64,000 bases of DNA, taken from NCBI GenBank assembly GCA_965238275.1, contig OZ250186.1:1120001-1184000 (forward strand). The letters are read 5' to 3'. This DNA is from Nitrosopumilus sp. Lineage in GTDB: Archaea > Thermoproteota > Nitrososphaeria > Nitrososphaerales > Nitrosopumilaceae. The position numbers were made by a program, and so were the translations under genes. This document shows positions 6,732 to 64,000 of the stretch, in pieces; positions within the stretch are counted from its first letter, which is position 1; each line of letters opens with the position of its first letter. The notes under the pieces are model-generated. The model saw nothing but the letters and a program-made list of their open reading frames with translations. It was not told the origin of the DNA and made no database searches.

Positions 6732-9548
6732 CTACCCTATGTAGCTCGGCCTGTCTTTGTCCTTTTTTGCCGCCTGTTCCACTTTTGTCTCTGCATCTAC
6801 CTTTGTGGCTGCCTGTTTTTCGGCATCTGTCTGCTCCTTGAGCGCATTAAAGTAATCCTTCGAATCCTCGTAGTCTTTCTTCTTGGCGTCAATGCCGGCC
6901 TGCGTCATTTTGGACGCCTCCTTTCCAACTGGGTCGGAAAACTTTTCAAAACCAAAGCCCTTGGGTATTATGCCCTGCATCGTGGATGCGGCCCCGCCCG
7001 TGACTGCGCCAAACAGGAATGTCTTGATGATGTCCTTTGCCGACTGCTTGCCAGCATACAAATGCTCCGGCTTCTTTATCGTCTCGCCGGCCTTGTTCGT
7101 GACTTCATTTGGAAGAGCATCCCTATCGCTTTGTGAAATGGTCGTGTCTGCAGCTTTTGACTGCGACATGGTGCCGCCGGATGGGCCGGTACCTGATGAG
7201 CCGCCGGATGGGCCGGTACCTGATGAGCCGCCGGATGGGCCGGTACCTGATGAGCCGCCGGATGGGCCGGTACCTGATGAGCCGCCGGATGGTTTACCTG
7301 GAGGGCTGCTTGGCGGCGGGCTGCTTGGAGTGTTGCCGCCGGACTGACCAGCACCAGACGAGCCGTCACCCGGCCATGGTTTTGCCTTGTACGCGCCTGA
7401 CCCCCCGTACATAGGCATGTCGTCTATTTGCCTTTTCGTCTCGATTTCTTCCCATTTTTTCTTCGCCGTTACATCCATGTTTACATCGACCTGTTCTTCT
7501 GCAGCCTCGTTCTGTTCCTTCAACGCCTTGAAATATTTTGCAGAATCCTCATATTCCTGCTTCTCAACGTCAATGGTGTCATGGGTCAGGTTGGCGGCTT
7601 GTTTCCCGACTGGTTCGGTGAATTTCTCAAAACCAAAGCCCTTGGGTATTATGCCCTGCATCGTGGGCGCGGCCCCGCCTGCTATGGCGCCCATGAGGAA
7701 CGTCATGCCCATGTGCTTCTTTGTCGGCTTGTCTGTACGCAAATGCTCCGGCCGTTTTACCGTATTACCGGCCTTGTCCTTGACTTCCTTGGGGTATTGG
7801 CCTTCTTGCGCCGGTTCTTCCGGCTTTTCCATGCTGTCTTTTTTCTTGGCATTTTTGGATGTATCGTCTGCATTCTGCGCAAAGTCTGCGTCTGCAGCCC
7901 CTGACCGTGGCGGCCTGTTGTCAGTCGGCGGGTTTACGCCAAACCCTCCGCTAGGCTGCTGCTCGTTGTATCCTCCCGGCATGTCGCCAGCTCCTGCTTG
8001 GACCGTTCCGGGGATGCCTGGTGCTCCTGGCGGGGCTCCGGGCGGCGCATCCATAAATCCGGCATTTGCATTTACAGACCCGGGCGGCGCGCCGCCCGAC
8101 CCTGCGTTGGTGTCAAGTATTTGTTGGTTCCCGTGTCCGGAATCTTTGCCGGATCTGCTGCCCACAAGACTGGCTGTTTCGGTCGCGGTTGCCATGGTCT
8201 TGGCGCCAGTCGTGGCAATGCCAGTTAACGCCTTTCCTGCCGCCGCGGAAGCACCCGCGCCTCCCATGACCGCGCCTATCCCGCCTGTGGCCGCTGCCGC
8301 AGTCGCAGTTGCAGCCCCTATCATTGCCGTCTTTAGCGCGCCCATGACATTCTGTTTTGCATCCATGAAGAACCCGCCTGCAAGCACCGTGACTGCAGAC
8401 GAGCACAAAAAGCACACGCATACTGCCTGCAGCCAGCGCACCAGTTCATCCTCGTTCCTCGACGATGAAAGATACGCCAGGCCTATCGTAAACACGAGTG
8501 CCGAGAATATCGGGGCCAGCATCAAGCCCGACAACGTGCTCGTAATCTTTCTTGTCGCCTCGCCGAACTTTGGAATCAACGACAACGGGAGCATTATGGG
8601 CATCGCCATGACCGTCATCATGGTGGCCATTACGCGCACTATCCCAGACACCCACATCTCCATGGCAAGCAAAATCACCACGACCGCCTTGAAAATTCCT
8701 ATGAATGCGCCGGTCAGTATGTTGTTGACTGCCTTGGCGGGATCAAAGATAAAACCGACCATTGATTCCGGTTGCCAGACGGTGGGCGGGATTATGCTCC
8801 CGGCCTCCATGAACAACCACGCGCCGCGCAGTTGCGCGTGGCTCTTGAAGCCGTCTTGCGGCGCGCCGACAAATGCCGCGACCGCGCCCACGTCTATGTA
8901 CGGGTCAGATTCTGGCGGGAACGGCGCCATGAAAAACAGCGCAAGTTCCTCGATCATTATGGCAAGCGGATCCCAGACTGTCGGAAGAATCAGGATGAAT
9001 ATGATGTACGGGACTATTTTTTTGACGTTCTCGATTGCCTTGTTCTTGTCCGTAAGACCGGTGCCTTCCGCTACATACTGCGTTACCGCGATGCACATCA
9101 CGATCACCATTATGGATATGCCTATGCCTGCAAGCAACCAATAATACGCGATGAAGACGCTTGGCTTCAGCTGGCAGTTTGGATCCGATCTGGCCCCGGA
9201 GCCCTCGCAGCCAGGCGTGAACCAAACGCAGTCTGCGGCATTATAATTGCCGGTGCGCTCGCAGGCTATCGGTTCGTACGCGCGGCCGCCGTCTTCGGCA
9301 TAATCGTAGAACGTCGGCATCTCGGTAAGGATCTCCGGCAGCGCGAGTCCGGCCACGACCACAATGCCCTGGCTGATTATGATGATTGTGGCAATCACGG
9401 CAAGTATTATCGCAATTATCACTGGTGTGAATACGATGCCGCTCCGCTTTGCCATGCCTTGGAGGATGGTTTGGCATTTAAGGAGAAAATCCAGCCGGCG
9501 TGAGCGTACAGTAGCCATGTCCTGCTTCTTGACTGGGTTAGTCAACAA
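6732..9548 (-). CDS. VirB6/TrbL-like polytopic membrane protein with long low-complexity, internally duplicated C-terminus
   Basis: Multiple TM helices, IVRVMATMMTVMAMPIMLPLSLIP segment typical of VirB6/TrbL, followed by an Ala/Gly-rich tail; start uncertain. Confidence 0.65.
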   Translation of the reverse strand: MLTNPVKKQDMATVRSRRLDFLLKCQTILQGMAKRSGIVFTPVIIAIILAVIATIIIISQGIVVVAGLALPEILTEMPTFYDYAEDGGRAYEPIACERTGNYNAADCVWFTPGCEGSGARSDPNCQLKPSVFIAYYWLLAGIGISIMVIVMCIAVTQYVAEGTGLTDKNKAIENVKKIVPYIIFILILPTVWDPLAIMIEELALFFMAPFPPESDPYIDVGAVAAFVGAPQDGFKSHAQLRGAWLFMEAGSIIPPTVWQPESMVGFIFDPAKAVNNILTGAFIGIFKAVVVILLAMEMWVSGIVRVMATMMTVMAMPIMLPLSLIPKFGEATRKITSTLSGLMLAPIFSALVFTIGLAYLSSSRNEDELVRWLQAVCVCFLCSSAVTVLAGGFFMDAKQNVMGALKTAMIGAATATAAAATGGIGAVMGGAGASAAAGKALTGIATTGAKTMATATETASLVGSRSGKDSGHGNQQILDTNAGSGGAPPGSVNANAGFMDAPPGAPPGAPGIPGTVQAGAGDMPGGYNEQQPSGGFGVNPPTDNRPPRSGAADADFAQNADDTSKNAKKKDSMEKPEEPAQEGQYPKEVKDKAGNTVKRPEHLRTDKPTKKHMGMTFLMGAIAGGAAPTMQGIIPKGFGFEKFTEPVGKQAANLTHDTIDVEKQEYEDSAKYFKALKEQNEAAEEQVDVNMDVTAKKKWEEIETKRQIDDMPMYGGSGAYKAKPWPGDGSSGAGQSGGNTPSSPPPSSPPGKPSGGSSGTGPSGGSSGTGPSGGSSGTGPSGGSSGTGPSGGTMSQSKAADTTISQSDRDALPNEVTNKAGETIKKPEHLYAGKQSAKDIIKTFLFGAVTGGAASTMQGIIPKGFGFEKFSDPVGKEASKMTQAGIDAKKKDYEDSKDYFNALKEQTDAEKQAATKVDAETKVEQAAKKDKDRPSYIG
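7174..7292 (-). repeat. 27 bp coding tandem repeat, ~4.4 copies (PSGGSSGTG)
   Basis: CCGCCGGATGGGCCGGTACCTGATGAG x4 plus a partial unit (+ strand). Confidence 0.95.
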
Positions 9549-10185
9549 TCAGGTAGGTGCGGAGGGCGTACTGCGCAAGCGCGGCGGCAACGACCATCTT
9601 GTCCTTGCCGTTGCCGCGTTCTGTCTGGAATGACGCCTCGGCGTTCTTGACGCGTTCGACGTATTCGGGAATCGACATGTAATAATCCACGGCCTTTTGC
9701 TCGGCTTTGACAATGGTCGGAATGCCAAATCCCGGAGACCTCCTGATGGAATTGTACAGCATGAGAAACATCGCCGAGTCGTCGTGCAGCATGCGCAGCG
9801 TGTTCACGGTTGGCTTGTAAGGCGCCAAGCCCAACAAGCCCTGGTGGCAATAAAAAAAACCAAAGTCATTGCCTACTGGACTCATGGAGTACTCGTAGTC
9901 CTTTTTCCCATGCCAGCAGCAATCCAGACGGATGAATCCCGCCAAATTTACCCCGGCGTCGCCGATGGCCTTGATGGCGTGCTTGATGCAATTTATCCTA
10001 GAATGCGCGTGCAGCGTGTCTGAGACGCGCCCATCGTCTGCGTTTGCCGTGTTGATCATCATCGATACGGTATCTGTCATGTTGGCGCCTATCGCGCCCC
10101 AGTCGGTCTGTTCGTCCCGGTTCCGGTAGTTTTTGTAGTTGTCGGTTGCCAATGGCTGCGTGCTGACGCGCACCTTGTATGTCAG

Positions 10186-11611
10186 GGAATTATATACAAT
10201 AGTAAACAGCAGCCGCCGAAGGCGGCCCATGTCTACTCTTGTTTTTTTCTGAAGGCAATGAAGCACTTTGATTGGCTCTCTCGTGCACGGTGATTTCCCG
10301 CATATACGCGCGGGGCACCGCGTGCTCCTTTTTCCTCCTAACGACGACCTTCCCGGCCGCCTTTGCGCCGCGCGCGGATATGTTGACCGCCGCGTTTATG
10401 TCCGCGTGGTCTTCATGCCCGCATCTTGCGCAGATAAATATTGATTGCGAGCGCCTGGAATTCCTGTCCGAATGCCCGCATTCGGCGCACGTCGTGCTGG
10501 TGTAGTGCGGCTTTACCCTGTGGAATTCCTTGCCGTGCTTTTTTGCAAACCACTCTATATACGACAGCACCTCCCCGAGCGCGGCGTGCATTATTGTCCG
10601 GTTCAAACCCGTCTTGCCCCTGCCCTTCCGTGCCATCTGTCTCGGGTGGAGGTTCTCGACTGCTATTATTTCCGCGCATGCAAGGTTTTCCTTGACTGAC
10701 TTTCTCATGAAATCCGTCCGGCGGTTGGTTGTCTTGGCGTTCTTTTTCCGGATGCGCTCCTGCTCCTTCTTCCACGAGTTGCTTCCTTTCTTGCGTTTTG
10801 ACTGCGCTGACTTTCTCATGTCTGTCTCGTCTCCCTTGTACCGCATGGCGTTCTCCGGGAGAGTCAGCAGGACAGATTTACCGTCGTTCAGGTTGTGCAT
10901 CGCCATCATGTTGACTGCGCCCACATCTATGCCGATAATGTCGCCATCGCCGTCGCGTTTTGGCTTATCCGCGTGTATTTGGACGTGCAGTTCATACGTA
11001 CGGTCCTCTGGCTTTGTATTCCTGGTGATTTTTTTGGTGGTCTCGATTATCTGGAACGACTTGATTAGGCTGCGTTCAATCTCGGTGCTTTTGGGCACGA
11101 TGCTGCAGACGCCACCCAGATTCCAGGAGCCGTCCTTGTTGCCTGCAGGCCTTCCATAGCACCCGATTGCCGGCTGTCGTCGTTGCACGCCCACGCGTTT
11201 TTTCCTGAACAAGCTGTCCGGTGACGTGTATTTGCGCTTGCGTTTTGGCCTCCATCGCTTCCCTATGTTTGATGCGCGGAACGCCTCGACTGCCTTCCGA
11301 CCGCCGTCGATCGCGTGCCTGTGGGCATCCAGATTGACATCCAGCCAGCCGTGTTCTGCCCGCTTTTTCGTGAGGATGTTGTACAGGCCAAACCTTCCAA
11401 GATTGTTATCCAGTGCCTGCCGAACGCCTTCATTGTAGCACCAGTTTATCTGCGGACGAACATTCCAGATGAGGCGCGATGCCTCCCGGGATTGGTAAAA
11501 TGGAACGGTGAATGTCTGCGTGGTGTATGAAAGTTCTTGCTTCATTGGTATGGTACTATACGGTACCGTGCGTTAAAAGGGTGTACTATGTCTGCTCAAG
11601 TATGTAATTCC
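10186..11611 (-). mobile_element. Non-autonomous TnpB-only element, copy 1
   Basis: The ~66 bp leader is identical to 60810..60875; the two ends form an imperfect 23 bp inverted repeat starting GGAATTA(C/T)ATAC; exact right end uncertain. Confidence 0.8.
10190..11545 (-). CDS. tnpB: RNA-guided endonuclease TnpB
   Basis: RuvC-I GIDVG, RuvC-II AVENL, zinc ribbon TSTTCAECG..CARCG, RuvC-III HADINAAVNI; catalytic triad intact. Confidence 0.93.
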   Translation of the reverse strand: MKQELSYTTQTFTVPFYQSREASRLIWNVRPQINWCYNEGVRQALDNNLGRFGLYNILTKKRAEHGWLDVNLDAHRHAIDGGRKAVEAFRASNIGKRWRPKRKRKYTSPDSLFRKKRVGVQRRQPAIGCYGRPAGNKDGSWNLGGVCSIVPKSTEIERSLIKSFQIIETTKKITRNTKPEDRTYELHVQIHADKPKRDGDGDIIGIDVGAVNMMAMHNLNDGKSVLLTLPENAMRYKGDETDMRKSAQSKRKKGSNSWKKEQERIRKKNAKTTNRRTDFMRKSVKENLACAEIIAVENLHPRQMARKGRGKTGLNRTIMHAALGEVLSYIEWFAKKHGKEFHRVKPHYTSTTCAECGHSDRNSRRSQSIFICARCGHEDHADINAAVNISARGAKAAGKVVVRRKKEHAVPRAYMREITVHERANQSASLPSEKNKSRHGPPSAAAVYYCI

Positions 11612-11749
11612 CGTGCAATACGATGCTGTCTTGAAAAGCCTTACGTGATAAGGATTGGATTCATGTCTGCGCAGTGCCTGTCTGCCCACAACATTTTGGC
11701 GAGCATTGGCTTTCCAACAATCACTCCTTGGGAACAGCCAGAATTGATC

Positions 11750-11944
11750 TTATCTGTATCTGACGGCCACGTATGGCGGCGCAGCCGTTATCTCGGCTGC
11801 CGTATGCCTGTGTTTGGAGAACCAACAGCTGCCGCACACTGGCTTCTCGCAGATTGCGCAGGTCTCGTGGCAATGGTGGCAGAGATCCGCGTTGCAGCTG
11901 CCGCACACGCATTTGGCTTCCTCATGGCACTTCTTGCAATCCAT
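11750..11944 (-). CDS. Small Cys-rich zinc-finger protein (B-box-like)
   Basis: MDCKKC..CVCGSC...LCHHCHETCAICEKPVCGSC..KH. Confidence 0.6.
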   Translation of the reverse strand: MDCKKCHEEAKCVCGSCNADLCHHCHETCAICEKPVCGSCWFSKHRHTAAEITAAPPYVAVRYR

Positions 11945-21156: not shown

Positions 21157-21366
21157 CCATGTATGTCGTGGGTGCTTGGCAATAAGTCATCTGGATTGGT
21201 CGAATTCACAACCGCGTTAGTTTTCTGCAACCCACGAAGTTGTTGCACATTCACCACGATTGGGGAACCAGACAAATCCTCAAAATAAATTCCAGCGGCC
21301 GCACCGAGCTTGCGCATATAATTCCCAACTTGCCATTCACCATGTTGATATACTTGTTGCCATCAT

Positions 21367-60398: not shown

Positions 60399-60809
60399 AT
60401 GAAGCCGTACAGTACCGGGATGTGGGATTTATTCAACCCATCAAGGCCATTGAAGGAAACCCTGTTGGTCCTTGCCGTCGTTTCGTTGGCAGTATTCATA
60501 TTCAACACCTCGTACGCCATACACGAGTGCGGTTGGGACACGTCATGTGCAATACTGCAAATGACCGCCATTGGAACGTTGCTTACTGTGGCGTCCATGA
60601 GCGGCAGCGTGGTGTTACTGGTGTTTGTCTACAGGAATTTTCCCAAGACGTGCGTGCGAATGGCCGGCGGCGAATATATCCGCATATGGTGGCTGTTCCA
60701 TGTGATGTTCGGCGCCAACGCGCTGATAAAATTCACGCTTTATGGCGAAACGCTGTGGGGAGAGACGTTCTTTTTCATGTTCCTGTTTACAGGCGCGCTG
60801 TACGCGATG
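60399..60809 (+). pseudogene. Membrane protein gene interrupted near its 3' end by TnpB element copy 2
   Basis: Four-TM ORF runs into the element at GALYAM|GITY and stops inside it (60848); start uncertain. Confidence 0.55.
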
Positions 60810-62140
60810 GGAATTACATACTTGAGCAGACATAGTACACCCTTTTAACGCACGGTACCGTATAGTACCATACCAATGAAGCAAGTTATTTCATACACCA
60901 CGCAGACATTCACAATTCCATTTTACCAGTCCGGCAAGATATCGCGCCTCATATGGGGGGCGCATTTCCAGACGGACTGGTGCTACAACGAGGGCGTTCG
61001 GCAGGCGCTGGAGGCCAGGCCCACGCAGTACGACATGTTCTCAATATTGAAGGAAAAGCGGGACGAACGCGACTGGCTGGACCTGAACGTGTGCGTGCAC
61101 AGGTACGCGATTGACGGCGGCCGCAAGGCAGTCGAGGCATTCCGCGCATCAAACGCCGAAAAACGCTGGAGGCCAAAACGCAAGCGCAGATACACGTCCC
61201 CGGACAGCTTGTTCAGGAAGCGGCAGGACGGCAAAAGGCAGGCAGCCATGGGGTGCTATGCAAGGCCGGCAGGCAACAAGGACGGCTCCTGGAACTTAGG
61301 CGGGATCTGCAATGTCGTGCCCAAAAGCACCGGGATTGAACGCAGCAGCATCAAGTCTTTCCAGATAGTCGAGATGACTCGCAAGATAACCAAACATATA
61401 CCAGCAATGAAAAATTCATATCAAAATCGCTCATAAATTTTTGATGCAACAGCCGTCTCTGGAAATTACGAGGTGCGTTGAATTCCCAAATGACGAGAAA
61501 AGACGCCCCGAACATTAGACATTGCATGCTCTGGTGCGCCGTGCATGGCACACGCTAGGCGGCGTGGATCCGGTGCGGTTTGATGTCGTTCTAGATGGCC
61601 CTGTACAGAAAGTTTTCAACGACCAGATTCGGTTTTTTGTACCTCGTGTACCTGGTGATCGCCTCGCGGAGCATGCTCAGGCTGGTGTACGGCACGTCAA
61701 GCACTACCCGCTTGAGATCCCTCCAGTACGTCTCTATGGCGCTCAGGTCCGGGGTCGCAGTTGGCAGGAAGACTATCTCCAGGCCGTCTGTGCCATCAAG
61801 CAGTTTGCGTATGTTTGATGCCCTGTGCTGGGAGGCCTTGTCCATGATCAGGCAGATCTTCTTGAACCTGTACATCGCCTGCCTTAGAAAGTCCTCAAAG
61901 GTGTCCTTGGTAAACGCATCGTACTGCCGGAACATGCCCCTGCCGTCCGTGGTGATTAGTCCATGGATTATCGTCTTGGAGTGTGAGCCGGTGTACGTGA
62001 AAAACGCCCGTATTCCCTTCCTGGTGTAGCCGCGTCTTCGCGGCCGCGCATCGGAGATTACTATGGACTCGTCCTGTATCGCTACGACTGTTCCTTCGCT
62101 GTTCTTTTTTTTAATAAGCTCTGGCATCTCTTTTTGGAAT

Positions 62141-63214
62141 TCTATTGTACGAGAATTAGTTCGTCCTAATTTTAGGAGAACTATCAAGGAGTATTTTGTG
62201 CTGTACCGATCAAGAAAATCCATGGTAGCGAGGCTTACACAAAAGGCAGTACGGTATGCAATTACACAGTGTCAAAAGGGACAGAAGACATCCACAGTGG
62301 CAAAACAAGTGGGTGTGTCCCAGAGGCGCATCCAGCAACTGTATGCAGAGTTTCGGCGTACGGGTACCGTGCATGCGCTGCAGAGACCGGGAAGAAGACC
62401 AGTGCACGCGACAGACGCGGATGTGAGCATGGTGCTAGAGGAGCACGGGCGTGAACCCGTAGGCGTTCTGCAGACGGCCAAAAAACTGAGAAGGAATCAT
62501 GATATTAGCTACGCCCTGACATATCGGATCATGAAGGACAACGGTCTGGTGACTGCGTCTCCTGCAAAGTCCAAGAAGAGAAAGTGGGTCCGCTTTGAGA
62601 GAAGATACTCAAACGCGATGTGGCATGTTGACTGGCACGTCATGAAGGATCCGCGCTTCAGGGGACTCAACCTAGTCACGTATCTGGATGACTCCTCCCG
62701 GTGCGTGGCGGCAGCGCAGCTGTTCACCGAGGCCACCTCAGAGAACGCGGTGGCCGTGCTGCAAAAGGCAATCGAGACGTTTGGAATGCCTGCCACCATA
62801 CTATCTGACAACGGTTCGTGCTTTGTAGGCGCGGCAGGCAGGCACAAGAAAGGGGAAGACGGCAGGAGAAGGAAGGCACCTGCCGGATCATGGCAGCCTA
62901 CCGCCTTTGAGGCCGAGTTGCTGGACCGCGGAATCGAGCTGATAAACACCAGGCCGTACCACCCCCAGACCAACGGCAAGCTGGAGCGGTTCCACCGCAG
63001 CATAGAAGAAGAGATTTACCACTACGAGTCATTGTCAAAATACATTGAATACTACAACGAACGCAGGCTTCACTGGTCCTTGGACATTGACAACTACGAG
63101 ACCCCATTGCTTGCGTTTCGCAACAGAAAGGCCACTGAAGCGATCAGGAATGACAACCCAAAATGGATGGAGGTGGACACCGATGACTAGGCGAAATAAT
63201 TATCATATATTACA
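62141..63214 (+). mobile_element. IS481-family element
   Basis: Imperfect TIR ending ...TACA; 15 bp TSD ATCTCTTTTTGGAAT (62126-62140 / 63215-63229). Confidence 0.9.
62222..63190 (+). CDS. IS481 family transposase (rve integrase core)
   Basis: WHVDW, DDSSR, LSDNGSCF, HPQTNGKLERFH, YYNERRLH. Confidence 0.93.
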   Translation: MVARLTQKAVRYAITQCQKGQKTSTVAKQVGVSQRRIQQLYAEFRRTGTVHALQRPGRRPVHATDADVSMVLEEHGREPVGVLQTAKKLRRNHDISYALTYRIMKDNGLVTASPAKSKKRKWVRFERRYSNAMWHVDWHVMKDPRFRGLNLVTYLDDSSRCVAAAQLFTEATSENAVAVLQKAIETFGMPATILSDNGSCFVGAAGRHKKGEDGRRRKAPAGSWQPTAFEAELLDRGIELINTRPYHPQTNGKLERFHRSIEEEIYHYESLSKYIEYYNERRLHWSLDIDNYETPLLAFRNRKATEAIRNDNPKWMEVDTDD

Positions 63215-64000
63215 ATCTCTTTTTGGAATTTCCTGATCTCCTCGTCAGGCGCCCTTCTTGCATGTTTTCCTACGGGAACCTTCTGGGAATAGCCCCACCC
63301 GCGCAGTATCTGGCGCACATATCCGAGTTCGTACCTTACTCCGGTCTTCTGTTGGATGTATTGCTGCATCTCCATGCCCGTCCAGACAGGTTTCCTGCAT
63401 GCGGCCTTTCTGATCTTCTTCATGTCTGCCTTGCTCGCCTTGGTCGGCCTGCCGGAACGCGGCATGTTTCCCAGCCTGTCAAATCCGACTTCCAGGTAGC
63501 GCTCGTGCCACTTGTAGCCCCACGAGGCTGACTTTCCCAGGGATTTTGCAGAATCCCTCATGGTTATCCCGTCACGTTTGACTCTGATGATCAGCATCAT
63601 GCGGTCCTTGGTATCGCAGTCTGTCTCAGCGGCGTATCTTTTCAACATCGTCTTGATCTTCATTGACTATGCTACGTGAAATAAGCATAATTTCACATGG
63701 AGTTAAAATATTTTACAATCACATCAATTTTTCATCTTTGGTATACCAGGCCGGAGGACCGCACGTACGAGCTGCATGTCCAGGTACATATGGCCAAGCC
63801 AATATGCAGTGCCAGCGACATTATCGGTATAGACGTCGGCGCCGTCAACATGATGGCCGTGCACAACCTGAACAATGACGAGTCTGTCCTGCTGACTCTC
63901 CCGGAGAACGCCACGCGGTACAAGGGAGACTCCATTGACAGGAAAAAGTCCGCGCAGTCAAAACGCAAGAAAGGAAGCAACTCGTGGAAAAAGGAGCAGG

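Follow-up and report, generated by a model that had tools for sequence, protein, structure and literature searches.

A transposase-less tnpB cassette with IS1595-type inverted ends in a Nitrosopumilus genome

Analysis of a 64,000-nucleotide stretch of Nitrosopumilus sp. DNA (G000:C1:1120001-1184000; hereafter called the window), which belongs to a closed genome of 2.22 Mb with 99.9% completeness, revealed an intact tnpB gene enclosed by inverted ends. This unit, copy 1, is probably (at roughly 80%) a non-autonomous, transposase-less cassette of the IS1595 family of insertion sequences (IS), which carries tnpB and an overlapping candidate guide-RNA scaffold as cargo, was moved in trans, and is now stranded. 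Its ends, and the layout of the 8-bp target site duplications (TSD) around its relatives in sister genomes, are those of autonomous IS1595 elements.

The sole credible gene of the 1428-bp unit is tnpB, which is also its sole open reading frame (ORF) with a family match; no second gene was found among the ORFs of the element. The left end (LE) and the right end (RE) are inverted repeats of 24 nt with 75% complementarity (18/24), and the tnpB stop codon TAA (10190-10192) sits within the right repeat. In the window, the 13-mer GGGAATTAYATAC was counted four times, compared with an expectation of 0.05. A preliminary description of the window had already reported a TnpA-less unit of about 1.4 kb with an intact TnpB and with terminal repeats that include the stop codon, and these points were confirmed. 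Its boundaries (10186 and 11611) were corrected to 10185 and 11612 on the basis of the right ends of three genomic copies and of contigs from three public runs, which depart from the window sequence exactly at these two positions. The contig departures point to further insertion sites in related populations; a joint across the element was absent from the contigs of the three runs.

Cassettes in three congeneric genomes (G017, G347, and G413) share these ends over 21 to 26 bp; in one G017 subfamily, the inverted ends are perfect over 26 bp. The ends are conserved across TnpB subfamilies that are merely 33 to 37% identical in an alignment of the window TnpB with three sister proteins (alignment A1). 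Every pair of these ends found in G017 is spaced 1.44 to 1.85 kb apart, and those examined contain only tnpB. The G017 cassettes are 95 to 99.5% identical, and four G347 cassettes are 95 to 98.5% identical and carry intact ORFs of 522 amino acids (aa). The cassettes of the sister genomes are younger than the copies in the source genome. Their layout is constant and reads [TSD8]-N-GGAATT...AATTCC-C-[TSD8], in which the position N, usually occupied by G, is variable at the left end alone. The outermost left-end base differs (G, T, or A) even among copies that are 95 to 99.5% identical; the outermost right-end base is always C in G017 and G347. When every cassette with both ends was inspected (n = 21, four congeneric genomes) and a duplication was counted at a match of 7/8 or 8/8, 15 cassettes were found to have one: 8/12 in G017, 2/2 in G413, 5/5 in G347 (15/19 in the sister genomes), and 0/2 in the source genome. 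The chance of a match of 7/8 or better at this fixed register is 3.8e-4 per element. The absence of a target duplication, stated in the preliminary description, thus holds for the two window copies but not for the family.

Two candidates from the sister genomes were rejected. A 5.87-kb element in G413 was considered as an autonomous form; its extra 4.4 kb consists of three unrelated nested IS (IS5-like, IS110, and rve). A 384-bp element with a duplication in G347 was considered as evidence of trans-mobilization; it derives from a full cassette by internal deletion and may have shrunk in place.

Because the 8-bp duplication and the GG-initiated ends pointed to IS1595, this family was tested in the relevant hosts. 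Matches to the Pfam profile PF12762 were obtained in 40 of the 401 genomes of the archaeal family, a tally that takes in two unpublished genomes on which no other result rests. At 8 of the 29 IS1595 loci scanned in the same archaeal family, GGAATTATATAC (with up to two mismatches) lies directly upstream of the transposase gene and faces inward. Extension of 16 loci revealed five complete elements with both ends (2.0 to 5.3 kb). Perfect 8-bp duplications flank four of these five in the layout [TSD8]G-GGAATT...AATTCC-C[TSD8], which is exactly that of the cassettes. Nine cassette ends were aligned with nine IS1595 ends (alignment A3). Of the first 12 columns, 10 proved invariant, and the initial 19 nt of the RE of copy 1 are matched exactly by one end of an autonomous IS1595 element (L171 in genome G157). 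The sequence GGGAATTAT fits ggnnatTAT, which we take to be the consensus of the ISNwi1 subgroup. The IS1595 family, some forms of which have passenger genes, was reportedly described by Siguier, Gagnevin, and Chandler in 2009. Members of the family usually are flanked by 8-bp duplications and possess a zinc finger at the N terminus (PMC8101967). The cassettes resemble them in inverted ends that begin with GG, in the 8-bp duplication of the sister cassettes, and in ends that are almost the same as those of the IS1595 elements found in sister genera. They differ in that the cassette holds tnpB only, with no DDE_Tnp_IS1595 or zinc-ribbon transposase gene, and in that the window copies have no duplication. 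Copy 1 thus lacks the transposase of its own that an autonomous IS1595 element has and shows the common ends expected of a non-autonomous one. The cargo of the autonomous elements at L150, L151, L154, L165, and L171 (genomes G174, G114, G228, and G157) includes methylase-HNH fusions, a methylase with an XcyI-like endonuclease, and an Eco57I-type enzyme.

Searches with the Pfam profiles Y1_Tnp (PF01797) and Resolvase (PF00239) gave no match in any of the four carriers (the source genome, G017, G347, and G413); the controls run with the searches of the source genome were positive. The search for Y1 and serine genes in the source genome, which the preliminary description had recommended, was therefore empty. 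This description had proposed mobilization in trans by an unrecognized transposase or recombinase. The TnpB-only organization between true inverted ends and the lack of Y1 and serine genes in the carriers agree with the first part of this proposal, but the transposase type is recognizable, as ends and duplication are those of an IS1595 DDE element. The same results bear on the alternative that the cassette is a derivative of IS200/IS605 (IS1341 group), moving as single-stranded DNA via a Y1 TnpA, or of IS607, moving via a serine TnpA with a GG core. The cargo TnpB is of the kind carried by both families, and the two window copies have no duplication, which would suit either. As in the IS1341 group, the unit is tnpB-only, measures about 1.4 to 1.5 kb, and has its candidate guide-RNA scaffold at the 3' side. 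IS1341-group elements, however, are described as having subterminal palindromes and neither inverted ends nor duplications (PMC3119063, PMC13565253), whereas the cassettes have both. The cassettes thus depart from the whole pattern of that group (no inverted ends, no duplication, subterminal hairpins, a Y1 TnpA available): their ends are true inverted ends rather than subterminal hairpins, and 15/21 have 8-bp duplications. IS607 elements also can carry TnpB, but they are described with a serine transposase, GG-terminated ends, and no inverted ends or duplication (PMC6188088, PMC13565253), and none of these characteristics was found here. The GG core suggested in the preliminary description would need a right end at ...ACATACAAGG. 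Copies 2 and 3 leave copy 1 directly after AATTCCC, so that the proposed core falls outside the element; there is no GG core at both junctions, and the right junction reads CCC followed by variable sequence. IS200/IS605 and IS607 are characterized by neither inverted ends nor duplications in these sources (PMC13565253, PMC6188088). A derivation of the cassette from either family is extremely unlikely.

Several observations weigh against the IS1595 assignment. Neither PF12762 nor an archaeal IS1595 transposase query detected an IS1595 transposase in the source genome. In G017, cassette copies are 99.5% identical and have perfect duplications, yet only a truncated transposase is present (a fragment covering aa 28 to 220); the PF12762 match in this genome is a chimeric, truncated ORF without these ends. 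G413 has the transposase as fragments only (three small ones). G347 encodes a full-length IS1595-type transposase (63% identity) located 1 kb from a matching end; the second end was not found, and no clean end pair was found around either copy of the IS1595 genes of this genome. Eleven of the 16 extended IS1595 loci have one end or none at up to two to three mismatches. The identifiable cargo of the autonomous IS1595 elements seen always consists of restriction-modification genes and never of tnpB, and an element combining an IS1595 transposase with tnpB was not found among the loci examined. Finally, the 8-bp duplication test gave 3/8 matches for each of the window copies, i.e., no recognizable duplication (0/2).

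Part of this evidence would also fit a self-sufficient TnpB element, in which TnpB, as an RNase H-fold nuclease, and its RNA move the cassette without a DDE transposase. Three of the four carriers have no intact IS1595 transposase, yet the near-identical G017 copies occupy distinct sites; the spacing and tnpB-only content of the G017 end pairs and the preservation of the ends across divergent TnpB subfamilies point in the same direction. On the other hand, bona fide IS1595 elements that have no TnpB carry the same ends in precisely this 8-bp layout, as a borrowed shell predicts, and remnants of an IS1595-type transposase remain in G017 and G413. To our knowledge, no TnpB catalyzes strand transfer. 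We regard self-sufficient movement as scarcely credible.

A different DDE family that makes 8-bp duplications might likewise move the cassette in trans. The source genome is heavily loaded with IS: within 2.2 Mb it contains 275 repeated segments that measure 300 bp or more, among them IS66-like, IS5-like, IS630-like, and rve-type families, and Pfam analysis revealed three families of the abundant IS66-like elements. IS66 elements make 8-bp duplications. These residents are candidates in a genome without an IS1595 transposase, but the terminal sequences of the resident IS families are unlike GGGAATTAYATAC, and the only elements found to have these ends together with a transposase are of the IS1595 type. 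Mobilization by an IS66-like or other resident DDE element is accordingly rated as highly improbable, and an IS1595-family transposase remains the preferred agent.

The TnpB protein matched OrfB_IS605 (PF01385) and the Cas12f1-like_TNB zinc ribbon (PF07282). The RuvC D-E-D triad and the zinc finger expected of a TnpB/OMEGA nuclease are both present: D207, E297, and D382, as well as C353/C356/C372/C375 (two CxxC pairs), are invariant in A1. The C-terminal half aligned with the solved ISDra2 TnpB chains in the Protein Data Bank (PDB) with an E value of 4e-15. These matches bear out the intact TnpB with D-E-D triad and zinc ribbon read in the preliminary description. Comparison with the sister copies yielded dN/dS values of 0.12 to 0.23, which indicate purifying selection across lineages; the values compare lineages and are silent on copy 1 by itself. 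This TnpB lineage is rare: a wide protein search found it in 4 of the 401 genomes of the family, all four in one genus; a phylum search (401 genomes) gave matches in three (the source genome, G017, and one weak match in another genus); a scan of genome contigs with TnpB returned loci from only two other assemblies; and a metagenome scan with A1 returned one weak relative (24% identity).

The last ~220 nt of the cassette are predicted to form a fold of 53 pairs, with 94.8% of cells paired in an alignment of eight copies from three genomes (alignment A2). The covariation score of the fold is 0.241, compared with 0.154 for shuffled versions and no more than 0.096 for slid ones; A2 represents only three lineages, and the fold was derived from these very sequences. 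The last helix of the predicted fold takes in the inner part of RE. The conserved fold fits a candidate guide-RNA scaffold; a search of this region against Rfam gave no credible match. By analogy with the TnpB proteins of IS605 and IS607, nuclease activity, the guide start, and a homing role may be assigned to the system.

BLAST analysis of the source genome detected three cassette copies, where two had been described. They are 80 to 87% identical and therefore old. All three right ends, which had been proposed for inspection, end at ...AATTCCC and then differ; both surviving left ends begin with GGGAATT. Copies 1 and 2 have the same leader, and their flanks part directly outside GGG, in agreement with the preliminary description; copy 2 starts at 60809. 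The tnpB gene of copy 2 is broken by a nested 2.3-kb IS, and the whole copy extends from 60809 to 64571. Coordinates of the features are listed in Table 1.

Table 1. Features of the window and of the cassette copies in the source genome. Positions refer to the window unless a genome coordinate is given.
Feature	Position	Strand	Remarks and basis
Cassette copy 1, GGGAATT...AATTCCC	10185..11612	-	1428 bp; comparison of three genomic copies and loose contig ends at 10185 and 11612
LE of copy 1, GGGAATTACATACTTGAGCAGACA	11589..11612	-	Inverted repeat; aligned with IS1595 ends in A3
RE of copy 1, inward reading GGGAATTATATACAATAGTAAACA	10185..10208	-	Holds the tnpB stop codon; inverted-repeat search and A3
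tnpB, 451 aa, intact	10190..11545	-	Pfam PF01385 and PF07282, A1, PDB TnpB chains, dN/dS
Candidate guide-RNA (omega RNA) scaffold region	10185..10404	-	3' end of tnpB plus RE; A2
Interrupted host ORF, downstream part (LTYKVRV...)	9541..10184	-	ORF reading
Upstream flank, open in frame, reading ...KTASYCT	11613..11750	-	No ATG; ORF reading
Copy 2, left part	60809..61398	+	LE (60809-60832) and tnpB codons 1 to ~175; sequence comparison
IS630-like element nested in copy 2	61399..63743	.	TA/TA flanks; carries an rve-type IS of ~1.08 kb; sequence reading
Copy 2, right part	63744..64000	+	Continues beyond the window to G000:C1:1184571 (window position 64571)
Copy 3	G000:C1:1086456-1087828		32 kb upstream of the window; frameshift near aa 350; left end lost beside an IS5-like insertion

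Excision of copy 1 had been said to restore the host ORF. This claim is weak: although excision opens the frame again, an ATG is lacking in the upstream part, and the sole homologue of the host ORF, a partial protein (P0002, 131 aa), reads ..KNAPYVTYKVRV.. compared with ..KTASYCT[element]LTYKVRV in the window, which suggests that the junction of copy 1 retains two extra codons. Given these codons, neither an absent nor a decayed duplication is established for the window copies. A flank swap by inversion between copies was considered as an explanation for the missing duplications and rejected, since comparison by eye of the candidate 8-mers of the three copies gave no cross-match. The 3.8-kb region was compared with 60 congeners in search of an empty site of copy 1 and gave no match outside the element. 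Because the flanks of copy 1 matched no DNA there, the window lies in a variable, IS-dense region.

As the source genome has no IS1595 transposase, the three copies would be stranded relics. Copy 1 has an intact ORF in this genome although copies 2 and 3 are broken, and exapted TnpBs have been reported (PMC10691335); a host might therefore have kept tnpB for another role, copy 1 being no longer mobile in function. An intact catalytic triad and the position of copy 1 within a disrupted ORF, in an IS-dense region with flanks unmatched in 60 congeners, speak against such a domestication, and the dN/dS values, which compare lineages, do not speak to copy 1 alone. Retention for a host function is considered very unlikely, and copy 1 is best described as a stranded cassette.

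Other elements and end-like motifs were observed in the source genome. The IS630-like element within the tnpB gene of copy 2 has ends reading TACCAGCAATGAAAAATT..., which match a 1.27-kb family of 16 copies; the rve-type IS that interrupts it lies roughly at 62135-63215, with repeated CTCTTTTTGGAAT at its flanks. A solitary end-like motif is located at 21314-21326 (-) of the window. Two further motifs, at G000:C1:1197970 (-) and 970070 (-), read GGAAATTACATACAAAAGTAG... and GGAAATCACATACAAAAGTGCAGTCGCCCGGCGGC..., have no adjoining tnpB, and look like RE remnants of other cassette subfamilies. A single-copy element of 347 bp (G000:C1:1100626-1100972) has perfect 25-bp inverted ends, GGGGCTTACATACGTTAGTGAACAC, that resemble the cassette ends; no duplication around it and no relative elsewhere in the genome were found.

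Taken as an IS1595-family cassette, the unit would move in the following manner. An IS1595-family DDE transposase encoded elsewhere would bind both GGGAATTAYATAC... ends, excise the cassette, and insert it via an 8-bp staggered cut, creating an 8-bp duplication as in the sister copies. TnpB, together with an RNA whose guide derives from the sequence that adjoins the right end on the outside, would cleave the same site where it is unoccupied or has been vacated, and this cleavage would favor retention of the cassette through recombinational repair. In the source genome, the cassette would have outlived its transposase, leaving three relics; the gene is intact in copy 1.

A G immediately adjoins the left duplication on its 5' side (in tnpB orientation) in 15 of the 16 cassettes of G017, G413, and the source genome (binomial P of 2.5e-8 at a G frequency of 0.26). 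The same base stands there in 2/5 cassettes of the divergent G347 subfamily and at 1/8 ends of four autonomous IS1595 elements without TnpB. In the empty site, a G at this place would occupy the position of the transposon-associated motif (TAM), beside the sequence matched by a guide that derives from the right flank. A TAM footprint is one possible source of the bias, a target preference another. It is conceivable, if doubtful, that TnpB-guided homing acts on an archaeal cut-and-paste DDE transposon and that only insertions landing beside a TAM persist, leaving the footprint. The sequence AYGG, put forward as a possible TAM in the preliminary description, was rejected: it is made up of flank and first repeat bases and is absent from the left flanks of the sister cassettes.

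Two other kinds of TnpB-only elements were encountered. The source genome contains a second family of ~1.5 kb, whose TnpB is ~30% identical to that of copy 1; BLAST revealed many copies that are 80 to 99% identical (e.g., G000:C1 1779807-1781325, 316708-318223, and 1008927-1010446). Its ends are inverted, 27 to 28 bp long (CTATAGTGAAAAGCGAAAGTTCGTGCAA / TTGCACGAACTTTCGCTCGCCGCTATA), and C precedes TATAG in all listed copies. A motif scan returned 24 left-end and 35 right-end matches, with 20 paired hits including duplicates; the inverted ends match both scan patterns, so that elements are hit on both strands. No duplication was seen around these copies, and empty paralogous sites were looked for and not found. 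This family has proliferated in a genome without a Y1 or serine transposase, and an IS630-type shell is a candidate. A third kind was found in G347 (L108:6699-8029). Its inverted ends are perfect over 26 nt and start with GGTTCTGTTGGGTTAACGGG, and a duplication was not seen; at L109:3236-3418 of the same genome lies a miniature of 183 bp whose ends are similar.

The usual explanation of TnpB is that, as a homing nuclease, it makes up for the scarless excision carried out by Y1 or serine transposases. Published accounts of TnpB within DDE transposons date back to 2023, when six DDE-associated branches (DDE-1 to DDE-6), along with solo TnpBs between the same ends, were reported (Altae-Tran et al. 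2023, PMC10691335). The view in the preliminary description that prokaryotic TnpB carriers lack inverted ends is outdated by these branches with inverted terminal repeats. The cassettes resemble them in that TnpB lies between inverted terminal repeats with its 3' end near the transposon end, and trans-mobilization of solo TnpBs was proposed there as well. They differ in that the main text of that study names only IS630 (IS1595 is absent from it and may be listed in the supplements), whereas the ends here are of the IS1595 type and a transposase together with tnpB was not seen in one element. A 2026 review names ISL2, IS630, and IS1031 as DDE partners of TnpB (PMC13565253); an IS1595 shell adds to these named partners. 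A literature search for TnpB with IS1595 returned no paper whose title concerns a TnpB cassette with IS1595 ends. Fanzors in eukaryotic DDE transposons are likewise TnpB-type nucleases in inverted-end, duplication-making transposons (Bao and Jurka 2013, PMC3627910), but they belong to eukaryotes or viruses, whereas copy 1 resides in an archaeon and encodes a compact TnpB of the ordinary kind.

For annotation, these results indicate that an archaeal "TnpB without TnpA" is not necessarily an IS605 relic. The benefit of TnpB to cut-and-paste DDE transposons has been posed as a question (PMC13565253). The TnpB-only cassettes with IS1595 ends constitute a compact test system for it, with exact 8-bp duplications and with active-looking as well as stranded genomes in one archaeal genus. 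If the homing footprint is true, they would represent a natural experiment on the role of TnpB for a DDE transposon.

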